Source of the DNA: a virus
Lineage: Duplodnaviria; Heunggongvirae; Uroviricota; Caudoviricetes
IMG/VR virus record: IMGVR_UViG_2778261537_000014
Coordinates: 1-21,495 of that record
Direction: 5' to 3' (one strand)
DNA: 21,495 nt
Shown: one piece after another, positions 2,740-21,495 of the stretch
How positions within the stretch are numbered: position 1 is the first letter of the stretch
How the letters are laid out: the number at the start of each line of letters is the position of its first letter
Notes under the pieces: model-generated
Seen by the model: only the letters and a program-made list of their open reading frames with translations
Databases searched by the model: none
What the model was told of the DNA's origin: nothing
Translations under genes and position numbers: made by a program

Positions 2740-2742
2740 TAG

Positions 2743-3444: not shown

Positions 3445-3540
3445 AGACTACCGCAAGCCAGGCGGACGCGGTGGAGGGCAGAACACTCCGTGTGTCACTG
3501 TGCCGTGGAAACCGGTCAGTCCGCCTTTTTCGGGGGAATT

Positions 3541-4496: not shown

Positions 4497-5200
4497 TTGC
4501 CGGTGGCGAGTTGAATAAAAAACAGCTGGCAGAGTTGCGCAAATCACTGGCCAGCATGGAGCTGCCGCCCAAAAAGCGCCAGCGTCTTATCTGGAGGCTG
4601 GCCAAATACGGTGTGATTGCCGCCGCAAAACGGCATGTTCGCAATCAGGAAGCACCGGATGGCCAGAAGTGGCCGGGGCGTAAAACGAAGCGCAAAGGGA
4701 AGATGCTGCGGAACCTGCCAAAACTGCTGCATATCCGTGAAATGCCAGAAATTCAGGCGGTGCGGATTTATTTGCAGGGCGGTGGCTACCGGAACGGGGA
4801 AACGCCGGTACCGGCCGGGACAGTCGGATATGCGCAACAAAACGGGATGCGCGTCAGTGCCAGCCGTCGCAGCCAGCCACGGAAGGCGCAGGCCGGAAAA
4901 ATGGCCACGCCAGCCCAGGCCAAAAAACTGCGGGCGCTGGGGTACCGGGTACGCACCGGTAAACGCTGGAAAAAGCCCACGCTGGGCGAGTTAACCCAAA
5001 CGATGCCATACAGCCGGGCGGGGTTACTGATTCGAAAACTCAGCGGTAAGGCGGTGAAAACCAGCTGGACAGTGGATCTTCCTGCCCGTGTCTTTCTGGG
5101 CATGAGTGACGATGAATTTGATAACGCGCTGGCGCGTCAGCTTCAGGCCATCGGCTTTGGCTGGGATGTTAAGGCGCAGGATATTAAGGGGAAAGCATGA
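4493..5200 (+). CDS. Putative virion morphogenesis / tail completion protein, gpS-like
   Basis: 235 aa with a basic-rich central region. ATGA overlap with the upstream gene and with the downstream sheath-like gene. Call rests on synteny only. Confidence 0.4.
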   Translation: MIAGGELNKKQLAELRKSLASMELPPKKRQRLIWRLAKYGVIAAAKRHVRNQEAPDGQKWPGRKTKRKGKMLRNLPKLLHIREMPEIQAVRIYLQGGGYRNGETPVPAGTVGYAQQNGMRVSASRRSQPRKAQAGKMATPAQAKKLRALGYRVRTGKRWKKPTLGELTQTMPYSRAGLLIRKLSGKAVKTSWTVDLPARVFLGMSDDEFDNALARQLQAIGFGWDVKAQDIKGKA

Positions 5201-6324
5201 CCTGGCCAAACGTGACCGTGAACCAGGTAAACCAGTTGCTGGGTGAAACCAATGAAGTGGAGCGCACGCTGCTGTTTATCGGTACGGGTACCAAAAATGT
5301 GGGGAAAACGCTGGCAGTGAATGCCCAGAGTGATTTTGATGCACTGCTGGGAGAAGGGGAAAGCCCGCTGAAAAACGATGTTCTGGCGGCACTGGCAAAC
5401 GCCGGTCAGAACTGGTGGGCATTTATGCATGTGCTGCCCGCAGATGCTGAGGACGATGCCTGGGTGAAAGCGGTTCTGGCCGCACAGGTGGTGTGTTCGG
5501 TGGAAGGGGTGGTGCTGTCCAGTGATGTGACGGCAAAAGCTCAAGTGAATCAGGCGGCGACGTTACGATCCACGCTGATTTCCAAATATGGGCGCTGGGT
5601 GTGGTTCATCCTGGCCGTGCAGGGAATGCAGGAAGAAGAAGGCCAGGCGGATTACCTGACCCGTGTGTCTGCTATCCAGGACGGTATAGCAGAGAAGGCG
5701 GTGCAGCTGATCCCGCGTCTGTGGGGAAATGAGCCGGGTGTGCTGGCTGGCCGTCTGTGTAGCCGTGCCGTGACTATCGCAGACAGTCCCGCCCGTGTGA
5801 AAACCGGGGCGCTGCTGAATCTGGGCAGTGATGAAATGCCGGTTGATGGTACCGGAGCGGTACTGGAGCTGGCCACGCTTAAGGCACTGGAAGCGCAGCG
5901 CTTTAGTGTGCCGATGTGGTACCCGGATTATGACGGTTTTTACTGGGCTGACGGGCGAACGCTGGATGTGGAAGGCGGCGATTACCAGTCGATTGAAACC
6001 CTGCGTGTTGCCGATAAAGCGGCGCGTCGTGTACGTCTGCTGGCTATCAGCAAAATTGCGGATCGTTCACTCAACAGCACACCGGGCAGCATTGCTGCAC
6101 ACCAGACGCTGTTTGCACGTCCACTGCGTGAAATGTCCACAGCGGCCAGTATCAATGGCGTGTCATTTCCGGGGGAAGTGAAGCCGCCGCAGGATGGTGA
6201 TGTGATCATTGTCTGGAAGAACAAAAAGACGGTGGATATTTATCTGGTGGTACGCACCTGGGAAGTCCCGCTGCAAATCACCATCAGTCTGTTACTGGAT
6301 GCCAGTCTGGAGGCCGCTGCATGA
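5197..6324 (+). CDS. Putative contractile tail sheath protein
   Basis: 375 aa. Immediately upstream of a roughly 150-aa tube-sized gene and downstream of the completion genes. Size is comparable to P2 FI. Call is by synteny; no direct sequence match recalled. Confidence 0.55.
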   Translation: MTWPNVTVNQVNQLLGETNEVERTLLFIGTGTKNVGKTLAVNAQSDFDALLGEGESPLKNDVLAALANAGQNWWAFMHVLPADAEDDAWVKAVLAAQVVCSVEGVVLSSDVTAKAQVNQAATLRSTLISKYGRWVWFILAVQGMQEEEGQADYLTRVSAIQDGIAEKAVQLIPRLWGNEPGVLAGRLCSRAVTIADSPARVKTGALLNLGSDEMPVDGTGAVLELATLKALEAQRFSVPMWYPDYDGFYWADGRTLDVEGGDYQSIETLRVADKAARRVRLLAISKIADRSLNSTPGSIAAHQTLFARPLREMSTAASINGVSFPGEVKPPQDGDVIIVWKNKKTVDIYLVVRTWEVPLQITISLLLDASLEAAA

Positions 6325-6776
6325 GTAAACGTATTTCGGGTATGTCGTTTGATACCTATCTTGACGGCGATCTGATCCACATCGAGAAAATCACGCTCGA
6401 TATCACGGATAACAGCGCCGCCGCCCAGACCCGTGGTGTGCCGGATGGCCATACTGATGGCGATGTGGCCGCAGAGGGAGAAATTGAAGTCAGTTCCAAA
6501 GTGCTGGGCGTACTGACAGCCAAAGCCCGCGCCGCAGGTTCGTGGCGCGGTATTCCTCCACTGGATTTCCTTTTCTATGCCAAAGCGGGCAGCGAAGAAA
6601 TGAAAGTGGAATCGTTCGGCAACAAACTCCAGCTAAGTAATCTGCTGGATATCGATCCCAAGGGCGGCGGTGTGGCGACGCACAAAATCAAATATTTTGT
6701 GACCAGTCCCAAGTTCGTGAACATCAACGGTGTGCCGTATCTGGAAGCGGAAGCCACGGAAAACCTGATCGGATAA
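6321..6776 (+). CDS. Putative tail tube protein
   Basis: 151 aa. ATGA overlap with the sheath-like gene. Size and position are consistent with an FII-like tube protein. Confidence 0.5.
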   Translation: MSKRISGMSFDTYLDGDLIHIEKITLDITDNSAAAQTRGVPDGHTDGDVAAEGEIEVSSKVLGVLTAKARAAGSWRGIPPLDFLFYAKAGSEEMKVESFGNKLQLSNLLDIDPKGGGVATHKIKYFVTSPKFVNINGVPYLEAEATENLIG

Positions 6777-8350: not shown

Positions 8351-10314
8351 AACAGTTAGATTTTACATTAAGCCTGATTGATAAATTGTCCCGCCCGTTA
8401 AAACAGGCGCAGGGCAGCGTAACGGGCTTTGCTGAAAAATCAAAAGAAGCCTTTATGCAGATTGGCGGCGGCGTTCTGGGGCTGGCGGGCACAGGGATGG
8501 CCATTAAAGGTGCGCTGATGCCTGCCATTGAAATGTATGACGCGCTGAATGATGCGGCCGCAAAAGGGATCGATGATTCTGCGCTTAAAGCCGTTCAGCG
8601 TGATGCGCTGCGCTTCAGTACAACCTACGGCGCCAGTGCGGTGGAGTTCGTCCAGTCCACGGAAAGTATAAACGCCTCCATTGCCGGACTGACCGGGAAT
8701 GAACTGCCGAAAGTGACGAAAGTCGCCAATACCCTGGCGTTTGCGCTCAAGTCCACCGCAGTAGAAACCGCTGAGTTTATGGGGCAGATGTTCGGTAACT
8801 TTTCCGCCGATGCCAACCGGCTGGGGAAGGTTGAGTTTGCTGAACAACTGGCCGGAAAAATGGTGTTCATGCGCAAAACCTTTGGCACGGAAATGGCCGC
8901 TATCAAGGATTTGATGGAAGGGGCGCGCGGCGTGGGTACTAACTACGGCGTGGGGCTGGATGAACAGCTGGCCGTGCTGGGACAGCTACAGCGGACACTT
9001 GGCACAGAAGCCAGCAGCGCTTATGAGGGCTTTATGACAGGAGCCATTGAGGGCGGTAAAAAGCTGGGGCTGTCCTTCACGGATTCCACCGGCAAAATGC
9101 TGTCCATGCCTGAAATGCTGATCAAGTTACAGGGCAAGTATGGCAAAAGTCTGGAAGGAAATCTGAAGGCCCAGGCTGAACTGGATGCGGCATTTGGAGA
9201 CAGTTCGGCGGTGGTTAAACACCTGTACGGTAATGTGGCATTGCTTCAGCGCAATATCACCGAGCTGGGCGGTGCAGATGGCCTGAAGCGTACCCAGGAA
9301 ATGGCGCAGAAAATGGTGAAGCCGTGGGATCGCTTTGTCGCAATCCTGAAGGCTATCCAGACCGTAATCGGCCTGACGCTGATCCCGGTGCTCTATCCGG
9401 TTCTGAACCGCCTGGCTGATATGGGGCAGACTTTTGCCCGCTGGATGCAGTTGTTTCCCAACATTGCGCGTGTTGTCGGGTATGCGGCAATGGCCTTGCT
9501 CAGCTTTGCGGCTGTGGGTGCTGTCGCCAATATTGTGATGGGGGCCTCTAAATTCATCATGATGGGGTTGCGCGGGATCTGGGTGGCGCTGATGGCCGTC
9601 ACGAAAATTTACACCGCCACTGTCTGGCTGGGAAACATTGCCGTTGTTGCCTGGAACGCCACGCTGAAATTTCTGCGCGGTACGTTGCTGGCGGTTCGTA
9701 TGGCGGCAATGATGGCCGGGATAGGTATCAATCTGATGAGCTGGCCGATCCTGCTGGTGATTGGTGCCGTCGCCTTACTTGCTGCCGGTTGCTGGCTGCT
9801 GATTAAACACTGGGACACGGTAAAGAACGCGGTCATGGATACCGCTGCATTTCAGGCATGCGCCAGGGTAGTGGAATGGCTGGCCGGGGTGTTTACTTCA
9901 GCCTGGCAGTTTATCAGCGAAGGATGGAACAGTTTTATTTCCATGCTGACCGGGTTTTCTCCTTCACAGGCATTAAGCGGTCTGGCCACGGGTATTGTTT
10001 CGTTGTTTGATAATGTCTGGCTGTCCGTTAAAAACGGTTTTCTGAAGTCGTGGAACTGGATTGTTGAGAAACTGAATAAAATCCCCGGTGTGGATATATC
10101 AATGGCAAGTACCACTTCACCACCATTAACTGGAAATACGTTGTCAACGGGTGGAGAGATAAAAGGAATTGATAAGGGCGGGATAAATAAAACAATCAGC
10201 AGCAATTCTAAATCAGTCACTGATAACAGCAAAAAAATAGGGGAGGTTCATTTCCATACCAAAGAAGCGATGTCCCCTGGTCAGTTAATGGAATGGCAGG
10301 AGCTAAATGCGTGA
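8347..10314 (+). CDS. Tail tape measure protein
   Basis: 655 aa, Ala/Gly/Leu-rich with a long central hydrophobic block (for example VLYPVLNRLADMG ... WPILLVIGAVALLAAGCWLLI). Sits immediately downstream of the frameshifted chaperone pair. Confidence 0.8.
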   Translation: MKQLDFTLSLIDKLSRPLKQAQGSVTGFAEKSKEAFMQIGGGVLGLAGTGMAIKGALMPAIEMYDALNDAAAKGIDDSALKAVQRDALRFSTTYGASAVEFVQSTESINASIAGLTGNELPKVTKVANTLAFALKSTAVETAEFMGQMFGNFSADANRLGKVEFAEQLAGKMVFMRKTFGTEMAAIKDLMEGARGVGTNYGVGLDEQLAVLGQLQRTLGTEASSAYEGFMTGAIEGGKKLGLSFTDSTGKMLSMPEMLIKLQGKYGKSLEGNLKAQAELDAAFGDSSAVVKHLYGNVALLQRNITELGGADGLKRTQEMAQKMVKPWDRFVAILKAIQTVIGLTLIPVLYPVLNRLADMGQTFARWMQLFPNIARVVGYAAMALLSFAAVGAVANIVMGASKFIMMGLRGIWVALMAVTKIYTATVWLGNIAVVAWNATLKFLRGTLLAVRMAAMMAGIGINLMSWPILLVIGAVALLAAGCWLLIKHWDTVKNAVMDTAAFQACARVVEWLAGVFTSAWQFISEGWNSFISMLTGFSPSQALSGLATGIVSLFDNVWLSVKNGFLKSWNWIVEKLNKIPGVDISMASTTSPPLTGNTLSTGGEIKGIDKGGINKTISSNSKSVTDNSKKIGEVHFHTKEAMSPGQLMEWQELNA

Positions 10315-10640: not shown

Positions 10641-11821
10641 CGGAAAAACCGCAGGTTGATTTTGAAGAAGTGGTGAAAGCCAGCGGGTTGCCGGTGACGG
10701 AATCGGAAGTGCGCGAACGCTTCAATGCGATAGCGGCCGAGGAAGGGATCATCACTAACACATCCCGCATGTCACCGTTCTGGCGTCTGATTACGGCCAT
10801 TGTGACGGCACCAGTGATGTGGCTGAAGGATGTTCTGGTATTCACCGTGCTGGCCAATATGTTTGTGGCCACGGCCAGCGGGAGCATGTTGCGTCTGCTG
10901 GCCTGGGCGGTAAACGTCACGGCAAAGCCCGCCAGTGCTGCTCAGGGGGTGATCAGGTTCTTTAAAGAAGATGCCAGAGCCGTGGTGACGGTGAAGACCG
11001 GAACGGTTATCCAGACTGAACGCATCAACGGCCGGGTGTATGAGCTGGCGACCACTGACGATGTGGTGATCCCATCCGGCACTGCCAGTGCATTGCTGCC
11101 GGTGAAAGCCACCGGAACCGGGGGAGCCTATAACCTTGCACCAGGGTATTACCGCATTCTGCCGGTGGCCGTGGATGGTATCAGCCATGTGGCCAGTGAG
11201 GAAAACTGGCTGACAGTGCCGGGTGCCGATGAAGAAAGTGATGATGAACTGCGTGAACGCTGCCGCAACCAGTTCAACCTGGTGGGCAATTACCACACGG
11301 ATGCGGTTTACCGTTCAATGATTGCTGGTGTTGCCGGGCTGAGTATCGACCGGATTTTCTTTGAGCATGAAGCGCCGAGGGGACCGGGTACAGCAAACGC
11401 CTATTTATTGCTGGACAGCGGGGTGGCTTCCGCGCCGTTTGTGAATGCGGTGAATGACTACATCAACACGCAGGGGCATCACGGCCACGGTGACGATATG
11501 CAGTGTTACGCCATGCCGGAAACCCTTCACGATCTGGCCGTGACGGTGTACGTCAGAAATCTGACCAACCTGACAGACGACGAACAGAACAACCTGAAGA
11601 ACGGGATTGAAAACCTGATCCGCTGTGCTTTTCGTGAGAATGCAGATTTTGACGTCAGAAAGACGTGGCCATATTCGCGTTTCTCGTTTTCTCAACTGGG
11701 GCGCGAGATCCACAAAACCTTTTCGCTGGCAGATTCACTGTTCTTTTCTCTGGGTGACATTACCAGTGAGCTGAATGTGCCGCGCCTGAAATCACTGGTA
11801 GTGAGTCTTGAGAATGAATGA
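10637..11821 (+). CDS. Baseplate assembly protein J (Baseplate_J family)
   Basis: 394 aa. ATGA overlap with the upstream gene. Central region (VVTVKTGTVIQTERINGRVYELATTDDVVIPSGTASALLPVKATGTGGAYNLAPG) is typical of baseplate J proteins. Followed by a gpI-like gene. Confidence 0.75.
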   Translation: MTEKPQVDFEEVVKASGLPVTESEVRERFNAIAAEEGIITNTSRMSPFWRLITAIVTAPVMWLKDVLVFTVLANMFVATASGSMLRLLAWAVNVTAKPASAAQGVIRFFKEDARAVVTVKTGTVIQTERINGRVYELATTDDVVIPSGTASALLPVKATGTGGAYNLAPGYYRILPVAVDGISHVASEENWLTVPGADEESDDELRERCRNQFNLVGNYHTDAVYRSMIAGVAGLSIDRIFFEHEAPRGPGTANAYLLLDSGVASAPFVNAVNDYINTQGHHGHGDDMQCYAMPETLHDLAVTVYVRNLTNLTDDEQNNLKNGIENLIRCAFRENADFDVRKTWPYSRFSFSQLGREIHKTFSLADSLFFSLGDITSELNVPRLKSLVVSLENE

Positions 11822-12401
11822 GTTCATGAAAAAGCTGACCGGGATGGTGCTTCCTTCCTGGATGAATCGGGGAGAGCCGAACAAGCTGCTGAAAACAGCC
11901 CGGCGATTCTGGGCGGAGGTTTACGGCTGGATAACATGGCCGATGAATCAGTTTGATCCGCTGACCTGCACCCCGGCATTGCTGAACCTGCTGGCCTATG
12001 ACCGAGATATTACCCGTTTTGACGGGGAGCCATTGAGCCTGTTCCGCAAGCGCGTGGCGTACGCCTTTATTAATGCGCGTGATGCCGGTTCGGTTGAGGG
12101 ATTTATCAATATCTTTGAACGGTTGGGCATTGGATATGTGGAACTGCTGGAGCGCCAGCCGGGGATCGACTGGGACGTGATTCAGGTACGTGTCACTGAT
12201 AGCCAGGTTTCGGACAACACGCAACTGATGATTCAGATTATCCGTAAGTACGGGCGAACATGCCGCCGTTATCAGTTTGAAGTGATTACATCAGAGAGCC
12301 TGGCAATTCGGGCGGGATGGGATCAGGGGGAATATGTGGTTTATCCGGCATCATTAAGCGGTACGGAAACACCCAGCGCGACATTCAGCGCGGGTTTGTA
12401 A
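11814..12401 (+). CDS. Tail protein I, gpI-like
   Basis: Motif DPLTCTPALLNLLAYDRDITRFD resembles the P2 gpI NPDTCPAALLPWLAWALSVDRWD-type signature. ATG 11814 overlaps the J stop (ATGAATGA); the ORF track used TTG 11808. Confidence 0.8.
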   Translation: MNEFMKKLTGMVLPSWMNRGEPNKLLKTARRFWAEVYGWITWPMNQFDPLTCTPALLNLLAYDRDITRFDGEPLSLFRKRVAYAFINARDAGSVEGFINIFERLGIGYVELLERQPGIDWDVIQVRVTDSQVSDNTQLMIQIIRKYGRTCRRYQFEVITSESLAIRAGWDQGEYVVYPASLSGTETPSATFSAGL

Positions 12402-12411
12402 GGAGTTTTAT

Positions 12412-13959
12412 ATGTCACAGACAACGATAACGCTGGCGTTTGAGCAGTGGAAAGCGAAACAGGGTACTACGGGTGAGCCTGTTCTATTGGATGAATTTGT
12501 TTTTGCCAGTGTGCCGGGGCTAGACCCTGATGCGCCCATTGATCGGGCTGAGGTGTTGCCGCCTGAATCGCAGATTGTTCATCGCCAGGCAGTCAGCCGC
12601 AAAGGCGTTGTAAATAACAACGCCGTGGTGCATTCCGCTGTTCTGGGCGCTGATGTGGGCGATTTTTCGTTTAACTGGATTGGGTTGGTTAACAAGGCCA
12701 GCGGCACACTGGCAATGATTGTTCATGCGCCGGTACAACAGAAGCTGAAAACAAAAGAAGGGCAGCAAGGTAACGTTCTGACCCGTTCTTTTTTGATGGA
12801 ATACAACGGCGCACAGGCTGAAACCGGAATTAATACACCGGCTGAAACCTGGCAGATTGATTTCACGGCGCGTATGGCCGGAATGGATGAGCGCCAGCGC
12901 CTGGAAAATGTTGATATTTACGGCGCAGCGGCATTCTTTGGGGACGGTTATCTGGTCGGGAAAACGGGTAATCAGTTTTTCGTCACCAAAGGCACCGGAT
13001 ATGTGGCGGGGCTGCGTTCTTCACTGGTTGCAAATCAGGATATTACCGTGACAACTAAGCCTGTAAAAGTCTGGCTGGATGTGTGCTGGACTGGGACGTT
13101 GACTGGTGTCTGGAATGCGCAGAGCAAAATTACTGTAGCGGAAAAACTGACTGATTATGTGCTGGGTGGGGTGCAACATTATGTTTTTGCGCTCGCCAGT
13201 ATTGATTCAGATGGCAATATCACGGATTTACGCCCAAAGGGTACGCTGAATGAACAACAGGCTACTGATGCGCTTAAAAGGCATGAGCAATCCCGGAATC
13301 ACCCCGATGCTTCAATCACAGAAAAGGGGTTTGTACAGTTAAGCAGTGCAACGGATAGCAATTCCGAAAAACTGGCCGCAACGCCCGCTGCGGTTAAGCA
13401 GGTTAACGAGAACGCCAATAAAAGACAGCTGGCGAATCCTCTGTTAACTGCACTTGCCAATCTTGCCACGCAAAAGAACATGTTTCCGTGGTTTACCGGG
13501 GAAAATACCGTTGCTACCAGTGCACTGACTGAATTTGCCCGTGAATTGCTTAGTAAAGGTGATGTGGCATCGGTTCTCAGGCATCTGAAACTGGGGAACG
13601 CCGCTACAAAAGATGTTGGTGTTCTGCCCGGGCAGGTGTTACCCGCGACAGCGTTTACTGCGCATTTGTCTGGATCGGGAATGTGTAAATTCCCGGTTCA
13701 GGCAACATCCGGAGCGTTTATTAATCTGATTTTTATGTGGGGCGTTACCAGTACCCCACCTGGTTCTTCTGCTGGTTACAATTTCCACACGGCTTTTCCC
13801 TATGCCTGTCTGATGGCTATGGGGTGTCGCGGGGCGGATGGTACGAATGCCAGTATGAATGTCAGGGCGCATAACAACACAACAATGATTATTCAGAACT
13901 GGGCACCAGTGGGGTCCGGTTACTGGGAAGACTGCATTTGGTTTGCAATTGGTTACTGA
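12412..13959 (+). CDS. Tail fiber protein, gpH-like
   Basis: 515 aa. Perfect SD AAGGAG. Internal block HEQSRNHPDASITEKGFVQLSSATDSNSEKLAATPAAVK closely matches the P2 gpH repeat HEQSRRHPDASLTAKGFTQLSSATNSTSETLAATPKAVK. Divergent C-terminal domain. Confidence 0.85.
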   Translation: MSQTTITLAFEQWKAKQGTTGEPVLLDEFVFASVPGLDPDAPIDRAEVLPPESQIVHRQAVSRKGVVNNNAVVHSAVLGADVGDFSFNWIGLVNKASGTLAMIVHAPVQQKLKTKEGQQGNVLTRSFLMEYNGAQAETGINTPAETWQIDFTARMAGMDERQRLENVDIYGAAAFFGDGYLVGKTGNQFFVTKGTGYVAGLRSSLVANQDITVTTKPVKVWLDVCWTGTLTGVWNAQSKITVAEKLTDYVLGGVQHYVFALASIDSDGNITDLRPKGTLNEQQATDALKRHEQSRNHPDASITEKGFVQLSSATDSNSEKLAATPAAVKQVNENANKRQLANPLLTALANLATQKNMFPWFTGENTVATSALTEFARELLSKGDVASVLRHLKLGNAATKDVGVLPGQVLPATAFTAHLSGSGMCKFPVQATSGAFINLIFMWGVTSTPPGSSAGYNFHTAFPYACLMAMGCRGADGTNASMNVRAHNNTTMIIQNWAPVGSGYWEDCIWFAIGY

Positions 13960-13960
13960 G

Positions 13961-14407
13961 ATGATGATGACTGACAAATACCGTTTTTCCGGCAATATTT
14001 TTTACCCATATTCCAGTAAAGCTGATTTTGATGCTGCCGGAACATGGCCAAAATCCGGCGTGGATGTGGATCTGACTACTTATCTGACTTTTATTCAGCC
14101 ACCTCCGTTTGGAAAGTTGCTTGGTACCGACAAAAAAGGCGCGCCATGCTGGATTGATATTCCGCCATTAACGCGCGAACAATTGATCACCCAGGCTAAG
14201 TATGAGAAAAGCCGCCGCCTGGATGAAATTAATATGTTCATCAATGACAGGCAGTGGCTGGGTAAGGCGGTGCTGGGCCGTCTTACTGACGACGAAAAAG
14301 AACTGTATGGGAAAGCCCTGGATTACCTTGATGAACTTAGCGCCTTGGATCCGCAAGATATGCCAGACAACTGGCCGGAATTTGAGGGATTTACCAATGT
14401 GGCGTGA
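13961..14407 (+). CDS. Tail fiber assembly chaperone, gpG / Tfa-like
   Basis: About 148 aa, immediately downstream of the tail fiber gene. Start is at the ATGATGATG run just after the fiber stop. Confidence 0.65.
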   Translation: MMMTDKYRFSGNIFYPYSSKADFDAAGTWPKSGVDVDLTTYLTFIQPPPFGKLLGTDKKGAPCWIDIPPLTREQLITQAKYEKSRRLDEINMFINDRQWLGKAVLGRLTDDEKELYGKALDYLDELSALDPQDMPDNWPEFEGFTNVA

Positions 14408-15122
14408 AGCACGTCTGGCCTTCACTGACTCACTGACAGCACTGAATTGTTCGGTCGTTCCGGCGCATCCGTGGATAAACGGACTGGGGCAACAAACGGA
14501 TAATGGGGCATATCTCAGTCCGGTTAATGCTGTCCGCTATCTTGCTGAAAGGCTTGCCGGAACGGGGGGGAATACCGATGTGATGATCATGATGGTGACT
14601 GGTCAGACGCATGAAAACTTTATTACCCGCCTCAACGGTCTGGTAGATGTTTTTCCGGCACCGGCTTTCACTCAGGTCAAGCGCCTGGCGCAATCCGCCG
14701 CGGCGCTGGCCATCGAAAAAATGCAGATCCCTGCGAAAACTGGGGCAGGGTTACCGGTTGCCATTCCTCTGTCGGTGCCAACCACCAGGGCGGCATTGTC
14801 AGCTGCGGCTGTCAGCCAGGCACAAAAAGCGGCCAGCGCAGGTTTCAGCCTGGGCGGGTTAAAGCAGCAACTGGGGGAATTCACGCAGCTGCGTGAAAAA
14901 CTTATCGGTGATGTGGCCAGCGGGCTGGACGATTTACAGGGAAAAAGCGCCAGAGCCTGGGTGTTTACGAGCAACGGCAACACAGCCACCACGCTGCTGG
15001 AGCTGGTAAAAGATATTCCGCAGCCATCAGCCGTTTATGCAGCGGCAGTGATGCTGGTTGGTGACAATCTGGATGGAATAAAGGGAATGATTCATGACTT
15101 CGATCCCAATACTGGCGCTTAA
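14397..15122 (+). CDS. Hypothetical protein (241 aa), function unknown
   Basis: ATG at 14397 with SD GAGGGA 8 nt upstream, overlapping the Tfa-like stop. Ala/Leu/Gly-rich; no motif recognised. The ORF-track start at 14202 is rejected as an upstream extension. Confidence 0.5.
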   Translation: MWREARLAFTDSLTALNCSVVPAHPWINGLGQQTDNGAYLSPVNAVRYLAERLAGTGGNTDVMIMMVTGQTHENFITRLNGLVDVFPAPAFTQVKRLAQSAAALAIEKMQIPAKTGAGLPVAIPLSVPTTRAALSAAAVSQAQKAASAGFSLGGLKQQLGEFTQLREKLIGDVASGLDDLQGKSARAWVFTSNGNTATTLLELVKDIPQPSAVYAAAVMLVGDNLDGIKGMIHDFDPNTGA

Positions 15123-15639
15123 CGGCGAGGCCATACCGCTGAAAAACATGCGTGTGACTGTATCGCAGCAGTTTCAGGATAAAGACCAGTCCGGCCAGAC
15201 AAGCGCCACAACCAAATCAGAACAGGGGGCAAAGGGGAAAGAGCTGCGTATCAGTGGCGAAATTCCGTTTAAAAGCCCGGAGATCCTGAAGCGTATTTTT
15301 GAACTGGCCAGCGCCACGGATGCCGGAGGAAATCGCCAGAAATACCGCGTGGCGCATGAAGTGGCCAGAGCCGTGAATTTTCGCGAGGCGACATTCAGCG
15401 GGATGCTTGATGCTCCGCAGCAGGACGGGAAAATGGCCTGGCTGGTTACGTTCACCCTGGCGGAACATATCAGCGTGCAGGAAAAGCGGGAAGCCAGGGC
15501 AACAGGCAAAACGTCTGCCAAAAAACAGACTGCCGGTAATGCGGGACAATCTGGCGGCCAGAGTGCCGGAGAAGATGAAGAAAAACTGACGTGGTTTGAA
15601 AAACGGGTGCTGAAACCCGTCAATGATGCTTTGGGTTAA
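15094..15639 (+). CDS. Hypothetical protein (181 aa); possibly a gpU-like tail protein by position
   Basis: SD AAGGGA 7 nt upstream. Overlaps the upstream ORF by 29 nt. Low-complexity Gly/Ser/Gln/Ala-rich stretch near the C-terminus. No family recognised. Confidence 0.45.
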   Translation: MTSIPILALNGEAIPLKNMRVTVSQQFQDKDQSGQTSATTKSEQGAKGKELRISGEIPFKSPEILKRIFELASATDAGGNRQKYRVAHEVARAVNFREATFSGMLDAPQQDGKMAWLVTFTLAEHISVQEKREARATGKTSAKKQTAGNAGQSGGQSAGEDEEKLTWFEKRVLKPVNDALG

Positions 15640-17342
15640 TGATGAAACCAGTTAAACGCCTGTACCTTTCAACGGATGAAGTTCACCTGGCTGATGCCAG
15701 CCTTGTGCTGGAGCTGAACAGCTGCGGCCGGGGATTTATCACTGCACAGACAGCCGCGGATTACACCGGGAAACTGGTGCGGCTGGATGTGGGGTATTCC
15801 GATCTGCTTTTGCGCTGGTTTACTGGTTATGTGGAACGCTCACAACCCGCCGAAAACGGCTTTCAGCGTCTGTTTGTGCGCGAGCTGGTCGGCGTTTTTG
15901 AAAGAATGTGGCCATGTTCATTTCAGCATCCCACTTTGCGCAAGGTTGCCAACTGGCTGGAGGAAAACAGCGGAATTACAGTCAGTGTGCCGGATGCCCC
16001 TTACAGCGATAAACCGATCCCCCATTTCACTCATAACGGCACGGGCTATCAGTTGCTGAATAATCTGGGCAGAGCATTCAGTATTCAGGATTACATCTGG
16101 TACCAGTTGCCAGATGGTTCCCTGTATGTGGGCGGCGCGGAAAAAGCGATGTTTGCCGGTCGTCCGGTAGATATCCCGGCAGAGTTCAGCCAGGGGGCTG
16201 CTGGCGGTAATTCCATGACGCTGCCGGTGATCCAGAGTCTGCGGCCGGGAGTGGAGCTGAACGGGGAGCGCGTGACAAAAGTGCACCTGACCAATGACAC
16301 AATGGCAGTTACCTGGACACCCAGAAATCGCGCAACAGGTCAGCCCTTACAGAAAACACCGGCACAGCGTCAGATTGAAAGCCATTACCCGGAACTGGCT
16401 TCCGGGCTGCACCTGCCAAAACTGGCCAGAGTGATAGCACCCAGTGAGGTCGTGAAAAGTGGTAGTTTTGCCGATCCGTTCCGGCCACGCTATGCCGTTG
16501 ATGTGCAACTGCTTGATGCAGACGGCAACCCGGATAACCAGACGCCAGTTTATTCTGCGGTGCCGCTGCCGGTACCTATGGCCGGTAATGACTCCGGCAT
16601 GTTCCAGTTTCCGCCAGAAGGAACGCTGGTTGAAGTTGCGTTTACCGGAGGGCGCCCGGATAAACCTTTTATCAGGCAGACGCTGCCAGATGGTACCAGT
16701 CTGCCGGATGTTAAGCCCGGTGAGCAGCTGCAACAGCAGCGGGCTGAAGTGTCGCAGCGTGTTACCCAGGCTGGCGATTGGGTACGGCAGACCGATCAGA
16801 CTATCAGCGAAATATCGATGGCGCGGACGGTCAAAGCCGACACGGAACAGCGTGATCTGATCAGCCGTGAAACCACGGTTAAAGCCACTGATAAAACTAC
16901 GGTGCTGGGTACCGCCACCCTGATGGCCGGAGCCATTCAGCAGGTCAGTGCCGGGGATTATAGCCAGGCCGTGAAAGGCAACAGGCTGGCCAGCATTGAA
17001 GGGAATGACGAAACCGATATTGCAGGGGAACAGTCCACTAAGGTGGCCGGAGGCGTGGATGTATATGTGGGGGGAACCCTGACTGAAAAGATTGCTGCAT
17101 TACGCAAATCTGTAGCATCGGGCGGCCAGCAGATTATGGGACCAACCGTCCATATTGGTAGTGAGAGTGTCAACACGCTGGCCATGATGCTGGATACCAT
17201 TGATTTACTGGCGGAGCTGGCGCAGCAATGTGCGAGCCATTCACACCCCAGCGTGGCTACGCCAACCAATGCCGGCGCATTTACCCAGACGGCAGAAAAG
17301 GCCGGACAGACCCGCAAGAAGTACCAGAGCATAATTGCCTGA
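15639..17342 (+). CDS. Baseplate hub-spike fusion protein: gpD-like N-terminal domain plus gpV-like spike C-terminal domain (VgrG-like)
   Basis: 567 aa. N-terminal block TLRKVANWLEENSGITVSVP resembles P2 gpD TLRQIAETLANEHGLELEVP. The region AVPLPVPMAGNDSGMFQFPPEGTLVEVAFTGGRPDKPFI resembles the gpV/gp5 OB-fold signature (WLTHRAGRSRTWWAPSVGEQVLIL...). HxH motif near the C-terminal tip (SHSHP, nt 17238-17246) is like P2 gpV HTHKHP. Confidence 0.65.
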   Translation: MMKPVKRLYLSTDEVHLADASLVLELNSCGRGFITAQTAADYTGKLVRLDVGYSDLLLRWFTGYVERSQPAENGFQRLFVRELVGVFERMWPCSFQHPTLRKVANWLEENSGITVSVPDAPYSDKPIPHFTHNGTGYQLLNNLGRAFSIQDYIWYQLPDGSLYVGGAEKAMFAGRPVDIPAEFSQGAAGGNSMTLPVIQSLRPGVELNGERVTKVHLTNDTMAVTWTPRNRATGQPLQKTPAQRQIESHYPELASGLHLPKLARVIAPSEVVKSGSFADPFRPRYAVDVQLLDADGNPDNQTPVYSAVPLPVPMAGNDSGMFQFPPEGTLVEVAFTGGRPDKPFIRQTLPDGTSLPDVKPGEQLQQQRAEVSQRVTQAGDWVRQTDQTISEISMARTVKADTEQRDLISRETTVKATDKTTVLGTATLMAGAIQQVSAGDYSQAVKGNRLASIEGNDETDIAGEQSTKVAGGVDVYVGGTLTEKIAALRKSVASGGQQIMGPTVHIGSESVNTLAMMLDTIDLLAELAQQCASHSHPSVATPTNAGAFTQTAEKAGQTRKKYQSIIA

Positions 17343-17352
17343 CTATCCCTTC

Positions 17353-17378
17353 AGCCCGCGCATAATGCGGGCTTTTTT
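17353..17378 (+). terminator. Rho-independent terminator closing the late/tail operon
   Basis: 7-bp GC-rich stem AGCCCGC / GCGGGCT with 7-nt loop GCATAAT, followed by TTTTTT. Lies 11 nt after the hub-spike stop codon. Confidence 0.75.
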
Positions 17379-18023
17379 GTGCCCATCCTCAGACCCCACC
17401 AGACGCATTCTAAGCGCTTCTTTTATCTGACCACTACCGCGCAACACCACAAAAGGATCTGTTCTGTCACGTTACGCTGACGACGCTACACGCTGACAAA
17501 ATAAATCTTTCGCAGACAAAAACGGCACTACACCGCACCCGCCTGCGGTTTCTGGATAGATAAAATTTTTCAGTTTTCTTTTTCTACAAATTAGGCAGCC
17601 AGACAGCGCCAGTTCTGGCGGTTTGCGGGATATTTCAAACTGAAAAGATTGAAAAGAATTTCAGCATTTTTCAGTTAGAAGGATCAGTGAAGGATCTGAG
17701 TGAGTTTATAACTATCAGATAAATATAGTAAAATATCACTTTCCGTGTGAAGCACGATCTAATTTTATTAGAAGTAGTGTTGAGATGAAAAAACTCGCAG
17801 GCTTAGGAATGATGCTAGATGTAGCTGAGTTAGAAAAATTTTGAAACTGAAATTTTTTGTCTTAGACATTAACCTGTTAGATATGAGATTACTTGCTTTT
17901 TTGCTGCAAAGTATTTGGTAATCTAGCTAAAAGCACTAGCGGATTAGACTATTGTTGGTTTGATCTCAATTGGCTCTTTGAAGTACAGGATAGAAACATT
18001 TAATTGGAAACTGAGAGGATGTT

Positions 18024-18638
18024 ATGCCATTTGCTCAAATGATGCGCGATAAATTAACACTAGTAAAACAAGATGGTAGTCGTATTGAAGATCTAAAAGG
18101 AAGTGTTCAGAAAGGGAAAATAATCATCATGAGAGGGGATATCTCGATTGAACCTGACGATGAACTGCATCGTGCAATGCCAGCTGGAAAATTTGAGGAG
18201 TACATTGTTGTTGAGCCGAATTTTCGGCAGGGACTCCATGGGATACCGTCCCATTACCAAGCTGAGGTGAGGAGGAAGACCCAAAGTAACTTTGTTACAG
18301 GAGCAACTCCGGGTGCACATACCATAAATTACAATCTATATGGTGCGAACAGCAGAGTGAACAACGACTCTATCGATAATTCTAGAAACTTCTCGGGAAG
18401 TGATGAAAATATTCGTCAGGTTTTGCAGGTTCTATCATCAGCACGAAAGGATGTCGAGTCTGCCACAATGGAACCAACCGATGTGCAAACAACAACTGCT
18501 ACTCTAGATATCGTCGAAAGCCAAATACAGACACAGGCACCTTCGAAGCCTGTGATTAAGACCTTGTTAGCTGGATTACCTGCTGTTGCGCAGGCATTGC
18601 CTTCGATAGTCAAATTGATTGAATTCTTTAAGGATTAA
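18024..18638 (+). CDS. Hypothetical protein (204 aa) in a visibly AT-rich accessory segment; unknown function, candidate moron or defense gene
   Basis: Strong SD GAGAGGA 5 nt upstream of the ATG. Codon usage and flanks are much more AT-rich than the phage or host genes. Compact N-terminal domain, Asn/Ser/Thr-rich middle, and a C-terminal amphipathic/hydrophobic segment (PVIKTLLAGLPAVAQALPSIVKLIEFF). No family recognised. Confidence 0.6.
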   Translation: MPFAQMMRDKLTLVKQDGSRIEDLKGSVQKGKIIIMRGDISIEPDDELHRAMPAGKFEEYIVVEPNFRQGLHGIPSHYQAEVRRKTQSNFVTGATPGAHTINYNLYGANSRVNNDSIDNSRNFSGSDENIRQVLQVLSSARKDVESATMEPTDVQTTTATLDIVESQIQTQAPSKPVIKTLLAGLPAVAQALPSIVKLIEFFKD

Positions 18639-18720
18639 CGCTCTGTCGCCATTTTGTCGCCACACTCGTTAAATGTGTGCTCTAAACGGTTGATTCGAAA
18701 GGGGCTGAATTTCAGGCAAC

Positions 18721-18875: not shown

Positions 18876-20561
18876 TTATCCTAATCCTGGCCATACCATG
18901 ACGATGATTGTCCCTGCCAGCGTCAGCAGGACGTTGGCGATTGCGTAGGTGCCCGCATAGCCCAGCGCAGGGATGTTACTGCGAGCTGTATCACTGATGA
19001 TCTCCATTGCCGGCGCGCAGGTGCGTGCGCCCATCATTGCGCCGAACAACAGTGCGCGGTTCATTCGCAATACATAAGCACCGAACAAGAAACAGATAAC
19101 CACGGGCACAAGACTGACAATTAATCCGGCAATCAACATCTGACCGCCAATCGCGCCCAGGCCGTTATTAATACCGCTACCGGCGCTCAGACCAACGCCT
19201 GCCATAAACACCATCAAGCCGAACTCTTTCACCATGCTTAATGCACCTTGCGGAATGTAACCGAAGGTCGGGTGGTTAGCACGCATAAAGCCCAGCATAA
19301 TTCCGGCGAATAACAACCCGGCAGCGTTCCCCATGCCGAAACTGAATGTGCTGAACTGGAAGGTGATCATCCCGATCATCAGCCCAATAACAAAGAAGGC
19401 GCAAAATGCCAGCAGGTCAGTGACCTGGCTGTGAATCGAGATAAAGCCGATGCGATCGGCGATGGTTTTTACGCGACGGGCATCACCGCTGACTTGTAAA
19501 ACGTCACCTTTGTTAAGCACGACGTTGTCATCTATCGGCATCTCAATCTGGCTACGAATGACGCGGTTAAGGAAGCAACCGTGATCGGTCAACTTCAGTT
19601 GTGCGAGACGTTTACCTACAGCGTTATGGTTTTTAACGACCACTTCTTCAGTGACGATACGCATGTCGAGAAGGTCACGATCGAAAACTTCTTTACCGTT
19701 ACGGAAGCTGGGATCGAGTCGGGCATGGGCGTCGGGATAGCCTACCAACGCTATTTCATCGCCCATTTGTAGCACGGCATCACCGTCTGGATTTGCCAGA
19801 ATCCCGTTACGTCGAATACGTTCAATGTAGCAGCCGGTTTGTCGATAAATACCCAGTTCACGCAGATTTTTGCCGTCGGTCCAGGCCACCAGCTCCGGGC
19901 CGACGCGATAGGCGCGGATCACCGGTAAATAAACCTTACGGTTGGCATCAGTGTCCAGGCCACGTTCGCGGGCGATTTGCTGGGCGCTGGTCTGTAAGTC
20001 CTGATGCTGCAATTTCGGCAAGTAACGCGCACCAACAATCAAACTCACCAGACCGATTAAATAGGTTAAGGCATACCCGAGGCTCAGATTATCCAGTGCC
20101 AGTGAGAGCTGCCTGCTTTCCATGCCGGAATGACGCAGTGTATCGCCAGCACCGACCAGAACCGGTGTCGACGTCATAGAGCCTGCTAACATACCGGCCG
20201 TCAGGCCAATATCCCAGCCAAACAGCTTACCTAACCCTAAGGCGATCACCAGCGCACTGCCAACCATCACCAGTGCTAACATTAGGTAATTTTTCCCATC
20301 GCGAAAAAAAATGGAAAAAAAGTTCGGTCCGGCTTCGACCCCGACGCAGAAAATAAACAGCATAAAGCCAAGATTAAGCGCATCGGTGTTAATGCTGAAA
20401 TGTTGTTGGCCTAATAACAGCGATACGACTAAAACGCCAATGGAATTACCCAGTTGGATCGAACCAAGTCGTAACTTTCCGAGACATAGCCCAAGCGCGA
20501 GGACCACAAATAATAACAGAATGTAATTCCCATTTAACAATTCGGCGACGTTTATATTCAC
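18876..20561 (-). CDS. ybjL: Putative AAE-family transporter YbjL
   Basis: 561-aa polytopic membrane protein with paired transmembrane blocks flanking central cytoplasmic regions. Recognised as E. coli YbjL from memory. GTG start at 20561. Confidence 0.85.
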
Positions 20562-20830
20562 GGAGGCTAACTTCTTGTTTACTAGTAAGCTGTTGAAAGA
20601 AATGGTAATTTACGATAATGTTTTTTACCAGAATTCAGGGCGCAGATTCATTCAGCGCACCTAAACGATAGTAAAGTAACAATATATTTTACTAGTGTAA
20701 TCACATTAGGTATCAACGGCTATATGAATTGCGTTGGCCTATATTAGCATGGAATGCGAAGCGGCTTTATCTTACTGAACGCCACACTGGCGAAAAATGT
20801 GTTCGATAGACGCAGTGTCAGGAGGAACGA

Positions 20831-21208
20831 GTGAAACATAAACAACGTTGGGCGGGGGCAATCTGCTGTTTTGTCCTCTTCATTGTGGTGTGCCTTTTTC
20901 TGGCGACGCACATGAAAGGCGCTTTTCGGGCTGCCGGGCATCCTGAAATCGGCTTGCTATTTTTCATTCTTCCTGGAGCAGTCGCCAGCTTCTTTTCACA
21001 GCGTAGAGAAGTCCTGAAACCTCTATTTGGCGCAATGCTGGCGGCACCCTGTTCAATGCTCATTATGCGGCTGTTTTTTTCACCGACGCGCTCATTCTGG
21101 CAAGAGCTGGCATGGTTACTAAGCGCGGTGTTCTGGTGTGCGCTGGGGGCACTGTGTTTCTTATTTATCAGTAGTTTGTTTAAACCACAGCACAGAAAAA
21201 ATCAGTAA
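20831..21208 (+). CDS. ybjM: Inner membrane protein YbjM
   Basis: 125-aa hydrophobic protein. GTG start with SD AGGAGGAA. Conserved position between ybjL and grxA as in E. coli K-12. Confidence 0.8.
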   Translation: MKHKQRWAGAICCFVLFIVVCLFLATHMKGAFRAAGHPEIGLLFFILPGAVASFFSQRREVLKPLFGAMLAAPCSMLIMRLFFSPTRSFWQELAWLLSAVFWCALGALCFLFISSLFKPQHRKNQ

Positions 21209-21227
21209 AGCCCTCAACGCGAGGGCT
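21209..21227. terminator. Hairpin between convergent ybjM and grxA (possible bidirectional terminator)
   Basis: AGCCCTC-aacgc-GAGGGCT perfect 7-bp stem immediately after the ybjM stop and 11 nt before the grxA stop. T-runs on both sides are weak. Confidence 0.4.
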
Positions 21228-21237
21228 TGTCAGACGA

Positions 21238-21495
21238 TCAGGCGTCCAGATTTTCTTTCACCCATGCAGCAAAATCGGTATAGCCGCCGATATGTTGCTG
21301 ATCGACAAAAATCTGCGGCACGGTTTCTACGGGTTTACCTGCCTTTTGTTGTAGATCTTCTTTAGTGATCCCTTCCGCACGAATATCTACATACTGATAC
21401 TGAAAATCATCGCGTTCATTGCTCAATTTCTCAGCCAGATCTTTTGCACGCACACAGTAAGGGCAACCCGAACGACCAAAAATAACGGTTTGCAT
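21238..21495 (-). CDS. grxA: Glutaredoxin 1
   Basis: 85 aa with the CPYC active site (GRSGCPYCVRAKDLA). Sequence recognised as essentially identical to E. coli GrxA. The start codon sits at the window end. Confidence 0.9.
   Translation of the reverse strand: MQTVIFGRSGCPYCVRAKDLAEKLSNERDDFQYQYVDIRAEGITKEDLQQKAGKPVETVPQIFVDQQHIGGYTDFAAWVKENLDA

Follow-up and report, generated by a model that had tools for sequence, protein, structure and literature searches.

We conclude that the two overlapping reading frames lying between the tail fibre assembly chaperone gene and the hub-spike gene of this DNA (the window, that is, the whole stretch of 21,495 nucleotides that was analysed) are conserved tail genes of an ordinary kind, carried by an HP1-like E. 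coli prophage. The second of them, ORF2, is assigned by its modelled fold and its position as a putative tube initiator, a functional analogue of P2 gpU that would sit on the hub. The first, ORF1, is a member of the HP1 orf33 family; its product is probably associated with the baseplate at low copy number, as part of the hub module. Taken as a whole, the best explanation in our opinion is a conserved inner-baseplate module with ORF2 as its tube initiator and ORF1 as its low-copy baseplate protein, and we would give this reading a probability of about 60%.

The late tail operon of the window is that of an HP1-like (Peduoviridae) temperate myophage, present here as a prophage adjoining E. coli ybjL. 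Its tail genes comprise sheath, tube, chaperone, tape measure, gpW-like, gpJ, gpI, fibre, Tfa, putative tube initiator and hub-spike genes, and the operon closes with ORF1, ORF2 and the hub-spike gene, in that order (Table 1). The reading-frame coordinates, lengths and overlaps of start and stop codons given in the earlier note proved exact on recheck. ORF1 starts inside the Tfa gene, whose TGA stop occupies 14405-14407, and overlaps it by 11 nt; the overlap of ORF1 and ORF2 is 29 nt; and in the TAATG at 15639 the ORF2 stop and the hub-spike ATG have one base in common. Promoter-like sites occur at chance level, without excess, and no terminator was found within the operon before 17353. The intrinsic terminator, a strong one, starts 11 nt past the ORF3 stop, and the annotated terminator of K139 is in the same location. 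Indeed, with three overlapping genes at the end of the operon and a terminator only behind them, the earlier proposal of translational coupling and a tail-related role is well founded.

Table 1. Features of the late tail operon discussed in the text (window coordinates)
Feature	Coordinates	Strand	Properties
Major tail tube gene	6321-6776		PF10772; separate from ORF2
Tail fibre assembly chaperone (Tfa)	13943..14407	+	Pfam Caudo_TAP, E 1.2e-19
ORF1	14397..15122	+	241 aa, 25 kDa, pI 6.3; ATG 14397, TAA 15120-15122
ORF2	15094..15639	+	181 aa, 19.7 kDa, pI 9.3; ATG 15094, TAA 15637-15639
Hub-spike fusion (ORF3)	15639..17342	+	567 aa; HP1 orf35 type; final gene of the operon
Intrinsic terminator	17353..17373	+	8-bp stem (6 GC) then TTTTTT; closes the late tail operon

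The length of a reading frame does not by itself prove a gene here, since chance frames on the opposite strand of the window reach 182 aa. That ORF1 and ORF2 are nevertheless real genes follows from their homologues, which number hundreds for each, from their strong family-profile scores and from the purifying selection seen against orthologues, with dN/dS of 0.09-0.22 for ORF1 and 0.06-0.15 for ORF2. An in-frame ATG at 14202, upstream of ORF1, would yield a protein of 306 aa; we place the start at 14397 because the homologues are 241 aa long and begin with MW, Trp2 being invariant. A programmed frameshift between ORF1 and ORF2 was considered and dropped, as ORF2 lies in the +1 frame and the overlap varies from 11 to 35 nt among relatives. 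The database entries in which the two are fused into a single frame look like sequencing or assembly artefacts and do not speak for a frameshift.

The hub-spike product matches phrog_2258, a baseplate protein family, with E 3e-276, gives weak matches to Phage_base_V and Gp5_C, and matches the beta-helix of T4 gp5 in the PDB with E 2e-8. Homologues of gpD and gpV are fused in HP1 (PMC10612066 Table S1). The hub partner of the HP1 type is a gpD-gpV fusion, one chain that combines the equivalents of P2 gpD and gpV. A BLASTP comparison of ORF3 with P2 gpD and gpV returned nothing. In the window, HP1, K139, YenM324 and ACA1 the gene immediately preceding the hub or hub-spike gene is of the orf34 type. 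The same order was found in all 18 sampled phages and in 40 of 42 genome loci, the remaining two being cut at contig ends.

The earlier note saw no recognisable features in either protein. This is true of ORF1, but ORF2 matches the Pfam family PF25759 (HP1_ORF34 baseplate complex protein) over its full length, its residues 1-181 aligning to profile positions 1-176 of 180 with E 8.6e-55 and 185.6 bits against a gathering cut-off of 27. It is of the same family, size and position upstream of the hub gene as HP1 orf34, K139 orf38 and ACA1 gp47. In the AlphaFold2 model a core with pLDDT above 90 forms a tube-like beta-sandwich with one helix, and a long low-confidence segment (about 25-49) resembles those with which tube proteins line their lumen. 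The tube-fold core covers residues 1-125 and is followed by a flexible linker rich in Gly, Ala and Gln (about 129-161) and by a conserved C-terminal helix (167-180). The window protein keeps this helix (LTWFEKRVLKPVNDALG), while the K139, ACA1 and C5a copies are without it. Among solved structures the best matches of the model are tube initiators and "ripcords", namely Pam3 gp17 (7yfz), Pa193 gp38/gp39 (9b45), pyocin R2 PA0626 (6u5b), Mu protein N (9ki1) and XM1 gp11 (7kh1). Identity to these proteins is 10-15%, and several of the initiators carry a LysM domain, which ORF2 does not. Because these matches lead those to ordinary tube proteins only narrowly, the label of initiator rests on the fold together with the gene position. 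On that footing, the tube fold and the initiator and ripcord matches suggest that ORF2 would do the job of P2 gpU.

The earlier suggestion of a gpU-like protein therefore holds for fold and position, but not for sequence. P2 gpU (159 aa, against 181 aa for ORF2) is a tube initiator whose C-terminal helix contacts the gpJ/gpI triplex (bioRxiv 10.64898/2026.09.14.750843). Both proteins have a tube-fold core, a flexible stretch and a C-terminal helix, and both genes adjoin the hub gene on its upstream side. However, ORF2 has no match to PF06995 (Phage_P2_GpU) at E <= 0.1, where P2 gpU itself scores 149.7 bits, and hhalign aligns the two with a probability of 0.2%. When viral contigs were scanned for relatives of gpU, the only sequences returned were 98-100% identical to P2 gpU, too uniform for a diverse profile. 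A published HHpred analysis had tentatively tied HP1 orf34 to gpU, at 15% identity, while treating homology as uncertain (PMC10612066 Table S1).

ORF1 is a different case. It belongs to the HP1 orf33 family, PHROG 1677, which it matches over residues 15-227 with E 3.7e-73; against the same profile HP1 orf33 scores E 1.2e-72 and K139 orf37 E 9.7e-121. Together with gp46 of Pseudoalteromonas phage ACA1 these proteins make up one family (PHROG 1677 and 20570), whose members are of similar size (about 210-300 aa) and are encoded between the fibre region and orf34. A search of 1.84 billion proteins gave 259 cluster representatives, all of about 210-320 aa, and none of the matches listed reaches much past the length of the family. 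K139-type members are extended at the N-terminus by about 65 aa, and ACA1 gp46 is without the HPW...YLSPxNA motif, the most conserved N-terminal motif of the family. In alignment A1 the protein has no invariant acidic or cysteine residue and His24 is the sole invariant residue of a classic catalytic type; in the wider family there are no conserved polar positions at all. We propose that ORF1 is a lineage-specific, non-enzymatic protein.

Searches outside the family returned little. PDB sequence and profile searches with ORF1 alone, with an alignment of 136 sequences and with a diverse alignment of 92 gave nothing below E 0.3, a Pfam scan of the 136 family members (E <= 5) yielded scattered noise only, and NCBIfam gave nothing for ORF1. 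The AlphaFold2 model is of moderate quality (pLDDT 64.6). A long helical hairpin is predicted, with a disordered middle part rich in Ala. None of the known baseplate proteins matched the model, and Foldseek against the predicted viral structures of BFVD found nothing at E <= 0.001. ORF1 is also the fastest-evolving tail gene, with a mean pairwise identity of 0.50 against 0.64-0.69 in the others. When identity matrices were compared in the manner of mirror trees, all tail genes correlated with r of 0.8-0.95, and no set of partners was singled out for ORF1.

The position of ORF1 led the earlier note to compare it with the Z/fun slot of P2, a hotspot that likewise lies downstream of the tail fibre assembly gene, and to allow for a cargo function. 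A defence, superinfection exclusion or lysogenic conversion gene might indeed be suspected here, given that ORF1 is of no known function, that a recombination point lies just upstream of it, and that ACA1 carries a retroelement cassette at the junction upstream of its homologue. Megablast matches in related prophages and phages begin at query 497/498, which is window 14396/14397, and ORF1 keeps 84-92% identity in places where fibre C-terminus and Tfa have been replaced. The fibre C-terminus and Tfa thus form a swappable host-range cassette, which stops exactly where ORF1 starts. ORF1 is untouched by these swaps and co-diverges with the other tail genes. Moreover, fun(Z) of P2 is variable cargo that lies after the terminator of the V operon and on the opposite strand, whereas ORF1 is conserved and syntenic within its operon, overlaps both of its neighbours there, and has neither a terminator nor an excess of promoter-like sites to set it apart. 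The check that the earlier note proposed, whether the 241-aa gene varies among otherwise syntenic prophages, gave no such variation: in 42 of 42 bacterial loci from Enterobacterales and Pasteurellales a gene of the same family immediately precedes the orf34-type gene, and the order also holds in the 10 sampled phages that have ORF1 and in three distant metagenomic members. The PADLOC defence families gave no match to ORF1 at E <= 0.1. This prophage has its variable slot elsewhere, at 17374-18640, which is past the operon terminator and surrounds a 204-aa frame at 18024-18638. With a homologue present in virions as well (see below), the cargo reading is already contradicted, and we regard it as highly improbable.

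Conservation in this sense does not make ORF1 indispensable. In 8 of the 18 sampled phages of the HP1 subgroup the gene is absent while the orf34, hub and spike genes are kept, and nothing fills the gap, hence we regard ORF1 as an accessory and not a core part of the baseplate. The phages without it are all phages of marine Vibrionaceae or Pseudoalteromonas, and their hub and spike genes are split alike. The earlier note would have given up a non-structural role for these genes had both products been found as stoichiometric virion components with clear homologues in all related phages. Of this, the ORF1 homologue of ACA1 is indeed found in particles (PMC10612066), but not all related phages have the gene. 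ACA1 gp46 is a true homologue, aligned by hhalign with a probability of 98.2% and E 3e-14 at 15% identity. In that one phage it was detected in purified virions by 2 spectra at 6% coverage, which corresponds to a spectral count per kDa of 0.09, against 0.08 for gpW, 0.05 for gpJ and 0.06 for gpV (PMC10612066 Table S2). This low-level detection is the one experimental observation on any member of the orf33 family. The ORF2 homologue, gp47, was not detected in the same virion mass spectrometry (PMC10612066 Table S2).

The two spectra of gp46 could represent carry-over, in which case ORF1 would be a morphogenetic factor for the hub, the tube initiator or the fibre base and not a stable part of the virion. 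The coupling of ORF1 to the Tfa chaperone gene directly before it would suit such a role, as would its dispensability in an entire group of related phages, its rapid evolution and its predicted helical hairpin with a disordered centre. However, the authors of the ACA1 study detected no further, non-virion phage proteins (PMC10612066 Table S2), and, per kDa, gp46 gives as much signal as bona fide baseplate proteins do. ORF1 also has no Caudo_TAP match and no likeness to known tail chaperone families in Pfam or PHROG, and since it does not co-vary with the cassette of fibre tip and Tfa, it is not a chaperone specific to the fibre tip. We consider a chaperone role in the wider sense a doubtful but serious alternative.

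A peripheral baseplate protein that holds the conserved N-terminal part of the fibre on gpI/gpJ, and is not a hub-wedge glue, seems to us unlikely. In its favour, the gene is placed between the fibre and the hub genes, most phages without ORF1 lack Tfa and have long fibres made in one piece, and in ACA1, where gp46 has lost its N-terminal motif, the fibre has been rebuilt with a separate attachment subunit, a VHML-type antireceptor and a diversity-generating retroelement. But these observations are not phylogenetically independent, and the phages without ORF1 may reflect very few loss events. Both P05B and ACA1 carry ORF1 but no Tfa, and in SMHB1 a small gene follows the fibre while ORF1 is missing. 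The identity matrices of the tail genes correlate about equally (r 0.88-0.95), and neither co-variation nor structure lends this role support. Given the ACA1 particles and the place of the gene beside the hub genes, we keep to the reading of ORF1 as probably a low-copy baseplate-associated protein.

What such a protein could do is suggested by comparison with P2, where gpX is the LysM "glue" of the baseplate (literature). LysM proteins serve as hub-to-wedge glue in P2, in pyocins and in extracellular contractile injection systems. No LysM or gpX protein was found among the late and tail genes of the window. ORF1 is like gpX in being small, non-enzymatic and encoded with the hub genes, which allows for a possible functional equivalence and nothing closer: it has 241 aa against 67 aa for gpX, is without a LysM domain or a fold match, and shows no similarity to P2 gpX in hhalign. 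As the ORF1 model matches no baseplate protein, a glue-like role would rest on position and on the missing LysM protein. We also looked at a 65-aa frame that follows the spike gene in the phages without ORF1, as a gpX-like LysM protein mutually exclusive with ORF1. This idea was dropped, as the frame has no LysM match; nor did phmmer match it to the last 62 residues of the window ORF3.

Our proposal for the assembly is then as follows. ORF1, ORF2 and the hub-spike protein would form an inner-baseplate module whose genes close the late operon. A ring of tube-fold ORF2 subunits would sit on the trimeric hub-spike and seed the polymerisation of the tail tube, while its linker and C-terminal helix probably reach the wedge in the manner of the P2 gpU C-terminal helix. 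ORF1 is most likely part of the baseplate at low copy number, and may be an adaptor that links the hub complex to the wedge and fibre-base proteins around it. The stoichiometry of the ring, its contacts and the glue-like role of ORF1 are what we infer from this arrangement. More tentatively, in one branch of the HP1 lineage orf33 could be a baseplate part of new fold, either a hub-to-wedge glue that replaces LysM or a coupler of fibre base and hub, with which a sister branch dispenses. The branch that manages without orf33 is the one with split hub and spike genes.

The practical value of these results lies mainly in annotation, and the biological point is modest. Genes of the ORF2 family widely carry wrong GenBank labels ("adenine glycosylase", "DNA-binding protein" or "tail-collar fibre protein") and can be called tube initiators, and those of the ORF1 family can be labelled HP1 orf33-family tail-module proteins instead of candidate defence cargo. 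In HP1-like prophages, defence hotspots should be sought past the terminator of the late operon and not past the fibre chaperone gene. Searches of the PDB and the literature found no structure of an HP1-type baseplate. Compared with P2, this baseplate has a fused hub-spike, no detectable LysM glue and, in some branches, an extra orf33 protein, which makes orf33 a defined target for structural or genetic study.

The 181-aa ORF preceding the hub-spike gene (ORF2), which had been described as lacking recognisable features, matches Pfam PF25759 ('Bacteriophage HP1 ORF34 baseplate complex protein') along its full length (E 8.6e-55), and it also matches PHROG 1398. An AlphaFold2 model based on 102 homologues reaches pLDDT >90 in the core and comprises a beta-sandwich and one helix, a long low-confidence segment (residues ~25-49), and a disordered Gly/Ala/Gln-rich linker (~129-161) followed by a conserved C-terminal helix (167-180). 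Structure matches, with the values listed, are Pa193 ripcord-1 (9.2), the Pam3 tube initiator gp17 (9.1), the phiCD508 LysM initiator (8.3), the pyocin R2 ripcord (8.2), Mu protein N (8.0) and XM1 gp11 (7.7). Since another gene of the window encodes the major tube protein and ORF2 directly adjoins the hub gene, ORF2 is best read as the tube initiator. In our opinion it very probably (about 0.85) forms the tube-initiator ring that sits on the hub and seeds the tube, its C-terminal helix probably lying at the wedge.

The earlier note had suggested that ORF2 could be gpU-like. With regard to role this stands, as hub adjacency and the model both point to a tube initiator, but it fails with regard to sequence: there is no match to PF06995, and hhalign against P2 gpU gives a probability of 0.2%. 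According to a recent cryo-EM preprint, P2 gpU is the tube initiator and its C-terminal helix touches the gpJ/gpI triplex (bioRxiv 10.64898/2026.09.14.750843); ORF2 has an analogous linker and C-terminal helix. Hardies and co-workers made a similar tentative gpU link for the homologue in Pseudoalteromonas phage ACA1 by HHpred, at 15% identity, and called it 'uncertain' (PMC10612066 Table S1). Hence, ORF2 functions like gpU, yet its sequence family is PF25759 and not the gpU family.

The linker of ORF2 (window 15519-15600) is of low complexity, rich in Gly, Ala, Gln and Lys, and its length and sequence differ among relatives. The 17-residue C-terminal helix is kept in the enterobacterial, Aeromonas and Pseudomonas members of the family and in some of those from Vibrio, and is absent from K139, ACA1 and C5a. 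Several PF25759 genes carry misleading GenBank names, namely 'adenine glycosylase' (vB_YenM_324, PV94, 1.202.O and vB_Psp_PY3), 'nucleoid DNA-binding protein' (phi3), 'DNA-binding protein' (ValB1MD-2) and 'tail-collar fiber protein' (yong1).

That there are two ORFs here which overlap their neighbours is confirmed by coordinates, homologues and dN/dS. The start of ORF1 overlaps the stop of the tail-fibre-assembly gene by 11 nt, ORF1 and ORF2 overlap by 29 nt, and purine-rich Shine-Dalgarno-like stretches (GAGGGA and AAGGGA) precede the two starts. ORF length by itself is weak evidence, as the opposite strand holds chance ORFs of up to 182 aa; homologues of each ORF, however, number in the hundreds, and dN/dS against orthologues is 0.06-0.22 for both, the same range as for the hub-spike gene. 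An in-frame ATG at 14202 was rejected as the start of ORF1, given that homologues are 241 aa long and begin with MW, Trp2 being invariant.

Features of the region from the fibre chaperone gene to the prophage-host junction
Feature	Position	Strand	Start	Stop	Length	Remark
Tail-fibre-assembly (fibre chaperone) gene	13943-14407	+		TGA 14405-14407		
ORF1	14397-15122	+	ATG 14397	TAA 15120-15122	241 aa	
ORF2	15094-15639	+	ATG 15094	TAA 15637-15639	181 aa	
Hub-spike gene (ORF3)	15639-17342	+			567 aa	starts on last base of ORF2 stop
Strong intrinsic terminator	17353-17373					11 nt past hub-spike stop
204-aa ORF	18024-18638	+			204 aa	PHROG 16834 (function unknown); between late-operon terminator and prophage-host junction (~18640)

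The window carries a prophage late region, whose genes were identified by Pfam and PHROG scans: a partial large terminase, scaffold, capsid of the P2 family, small terminase, gpL, gpR, gpS, sheath (DUF2586), tube (HP1 Orf24 family), holin, endolysin, spanins, tail chaperone, tape measure, DUF2590 (a gpW-like sheath initiator), gpJ and gpI, and then fibre, fibre chaperone, ORF1, ORF2 and the hub-spike fusion, which has a T4 gp5-like beta-helix. Among phages, those of the ESSI2_ev series (genus Quadragintavirus, Peduoviridae) come nearest, at ~83% DNA identity. The same gene order is seen in phages HP1 of Haemophilus (orf33-orf34-orf35), K139 of Vibrio (orf37-38-39) and vB_YenM_324 of Yersinia (gp33-35). 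From ~18640 onward the DNA is E. coli core sequence (ybjL-ybjM-grxA, 99% identical), so the element is an E. coli prophage with its right end at ~18.6 kb. The flank at 18876-21495, with ybjL (aspartate:alanine antiporter family), ybjM and grxA, is ~99% identical to thousands of E. coli genomes, which places the insertion beside ybjL. Between its small terminase and head-completion genes, ESSI2_ev015 carries an additional gene of 65 aa ('L33' in the annotation, 8687-8884), where the window shows just a spacer of 46 nt (3444-3490).

ORF1 falls into PHROG 1677 (E 3.7e-73), the family of HP1 orf33 and K139 orf37, and had no match in Pfam, NCBIfam, PADLOC or PDB by single-sequence or profile searches. 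The family is small, with 259 representatives when a set of 1.84 billion proteins is clustered at 50%; its full-length members have ~210-320 aa, and none of the matches listed reaches far past that length. In its AlphaFold2 model, which is based on 136 sequences and of moderate quality (pLDDT 64.6, pTM 0.56), an alpha/beta core (residues 1-106 and 184-234) carries a long helical hairpin as an insertion (132-180), and an Ala-rich loop is disordered; a Foldseek search of predicted viral structures gave no match. Conserved positions are mainly aromatic, proline or small residues, with no invariant acidic residue or cysteine; in the wider family, only Leu40 and Ala45 are nearly invariant. Judged from this conservation, an enzyme role is unlikely. 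ORF1 evolves fastest among the tail genes (mean pairwise identity 0.50, against 0.64-0.69 for the others), and its divergence tracks theirs (r 0.88-0.95).

The earlier note also considered that ORF1 might be cargo in a slot like Z/fun of P2, variable among otherwise syntenic prophages. In P2, the V-operon terminator lies past the chaperone gene G, and fun(Z) is found beyond that terminator, in the opposite orientation. In the window, unlike P2, no terminator was found between the fibre chaperone gene and the terminator at 17353-17373, promoter-like sites over this stretch are at chance level, and the operon runs on through ORF1-ORF3, in function the counterpart of the P2 F operon end (U and D) plus V. 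Nor is ORF1 variable in the sense proposed: across 42 loci in bacterial genomes of Enterobacterales (Morganellaceae among them) and Pasteurellaceae, an ORF2 homologue lies directly 3' of the ORF1 homologue in all 42, with a hub-spike homologue next in 40, the remaining two ending at contig edges. Three distant metagenomic members keep the ORF1-ORF2 adjacency as well. The likely variable cargo slot is instead the post-terminator space, 17374-18640, where other E. coli strains have different genes, e.g. a PIN-domain protein, and where the 204-aa ORF weakly matches PDC-M14B, a candidate defence family of PADLOC, over its C-terminal 90 aa (E 4e-5). A cargo or defence role for ORF1 is thus highly improbable. 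In ACA1, a diversity-generating retroelement cassette (10693-12588: accessory variability determinant, reverse transcriptase and a small ORF) lies exactly between the antireceptor gene and the ORF1 counterpart, gp46, which indicates that the junction 5' of ORF1 can take cargo while ORF1 itself is not cargo.

Leftward of ORF1, gpI and the fibre N-terminus are kept, and the fibre C-terminus and chaperone are swapped for unrelated sequence. Megablast matches (49 E. coli genomes, 10 phage records) set in no more than one base from the ORF1 start, so ORF1 lies just outside the host-range cassette, on the side that is conserved. The fibre gene and its chaperone are the immediate neighbours on that side, and an adaptor at the fibre base is a role that we find unlikely for ORF1. 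Contig LLKR01000110.1 of GCA_002900115.1 encodes (2193-3035) a 280-aa protein whose C-terminal ~100 aa are of the orf33 family and whose N-terminal ~150 aa, judged by eye, resemble a tail-collar-like fibre tip; a 143-aa stub, with a weak phage-tail-repeat match as its sole Pfam mark, precedes it. This fusion is probably a deletion in a decaying prophage.

ACA1 gp46 has the same gene position as ORF1 and is a true homologue (hhalign probability 98.2%, E 3.3e-14, 181 columns; phrog_1677 E 1.5e-9). Mass spectrometry of purified ACA1 virions gave 2 spectra for gp46 (6% coverage). Per kDa this is a spectral count of 0.09, similar to the values for the homologues of gpW, gpJ and gpV, and proteins unexpected in virions were not detected by the authors (PMC10612066 Table S2). 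These spectra give modest but direct support to a low-copy virion protein. We therefore lean somewhat towards ORF1 being a virion component; that it acts as an assembly chaperone is doubtful, though clearly less so than a place at the fibre base.

Clear homologues of ORF1 are not found in all related phages. In 18 phages with an ORF2-family gene, each locus being searched with the ORF1 family profile, the family is present in ten (ESSI2_ev015, HP1, YenM324, K139, ValB1MD-2, phiO18P, P05B, phi3, UFJF_PfPro and ACA1) and was not detected in eight (C5a, PV94, yong1, ZF14_PE001, two 10N.286.54 prophage elements, 1.202.O and SMHB1). The subgroup shows two layouts: a fused hub-spike of 533-567 aa, always with an orf33-family gene (7/7), and a split hub and spike of ~230 aa each, usually without it. 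Hub and spike are separate in all eight phages lacking ORF1, in most of which the fibre gene passes straight to the orf34-type gene; this pattern was counted without a tree and supports no functional correlation. All eight are marine phages of Vibrionaceae or Pseudoalteromonas and share the split arrangement, hence the pattern may reflect very few evolutionary events. ORF1 is dispensable to the HP1-type baseplate and is a lineage-specific addition. Six of the eight (the Vibrio ones) have a 65-aa ORF after the spike gene, which has no Pfam match and is not LysM. In Pseudomonas phage phi3 (KT887559), an unannotated gap of ~914 nt (~2581-3495) between the fibre-assembly-like and orf34-type genes codes for a clear ORF1-family protein (hmmsearch E 1.9e-60), and the hub gene is apparently unannotated too (gap 4034-4717).

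We propose that trimers of ORF3 would form hub and spike, that ORF2 would assemble on the hub as the initiator ring, probably contacting the wedge by its C-terminal helix, and seed tube growth around the tape measure, and that ORF1 would probably be a low-copy, baseplate-associated adaptor of the hub module. ORF1 may replace the LysM glue (gpX in P2), of which no counterpart was found among the window's late genes; this specific glue-like role is tentative and less likely than not. Searches of PDB and the literature found no solved HP1-type baseplate. ORF1 and ORF2 are ordinary members of recognised families, with homologues of 90-97% identity already in databases; the remaining interest lies in the HP1-type baseplate and in the orf33 family, a family without known fold or role.
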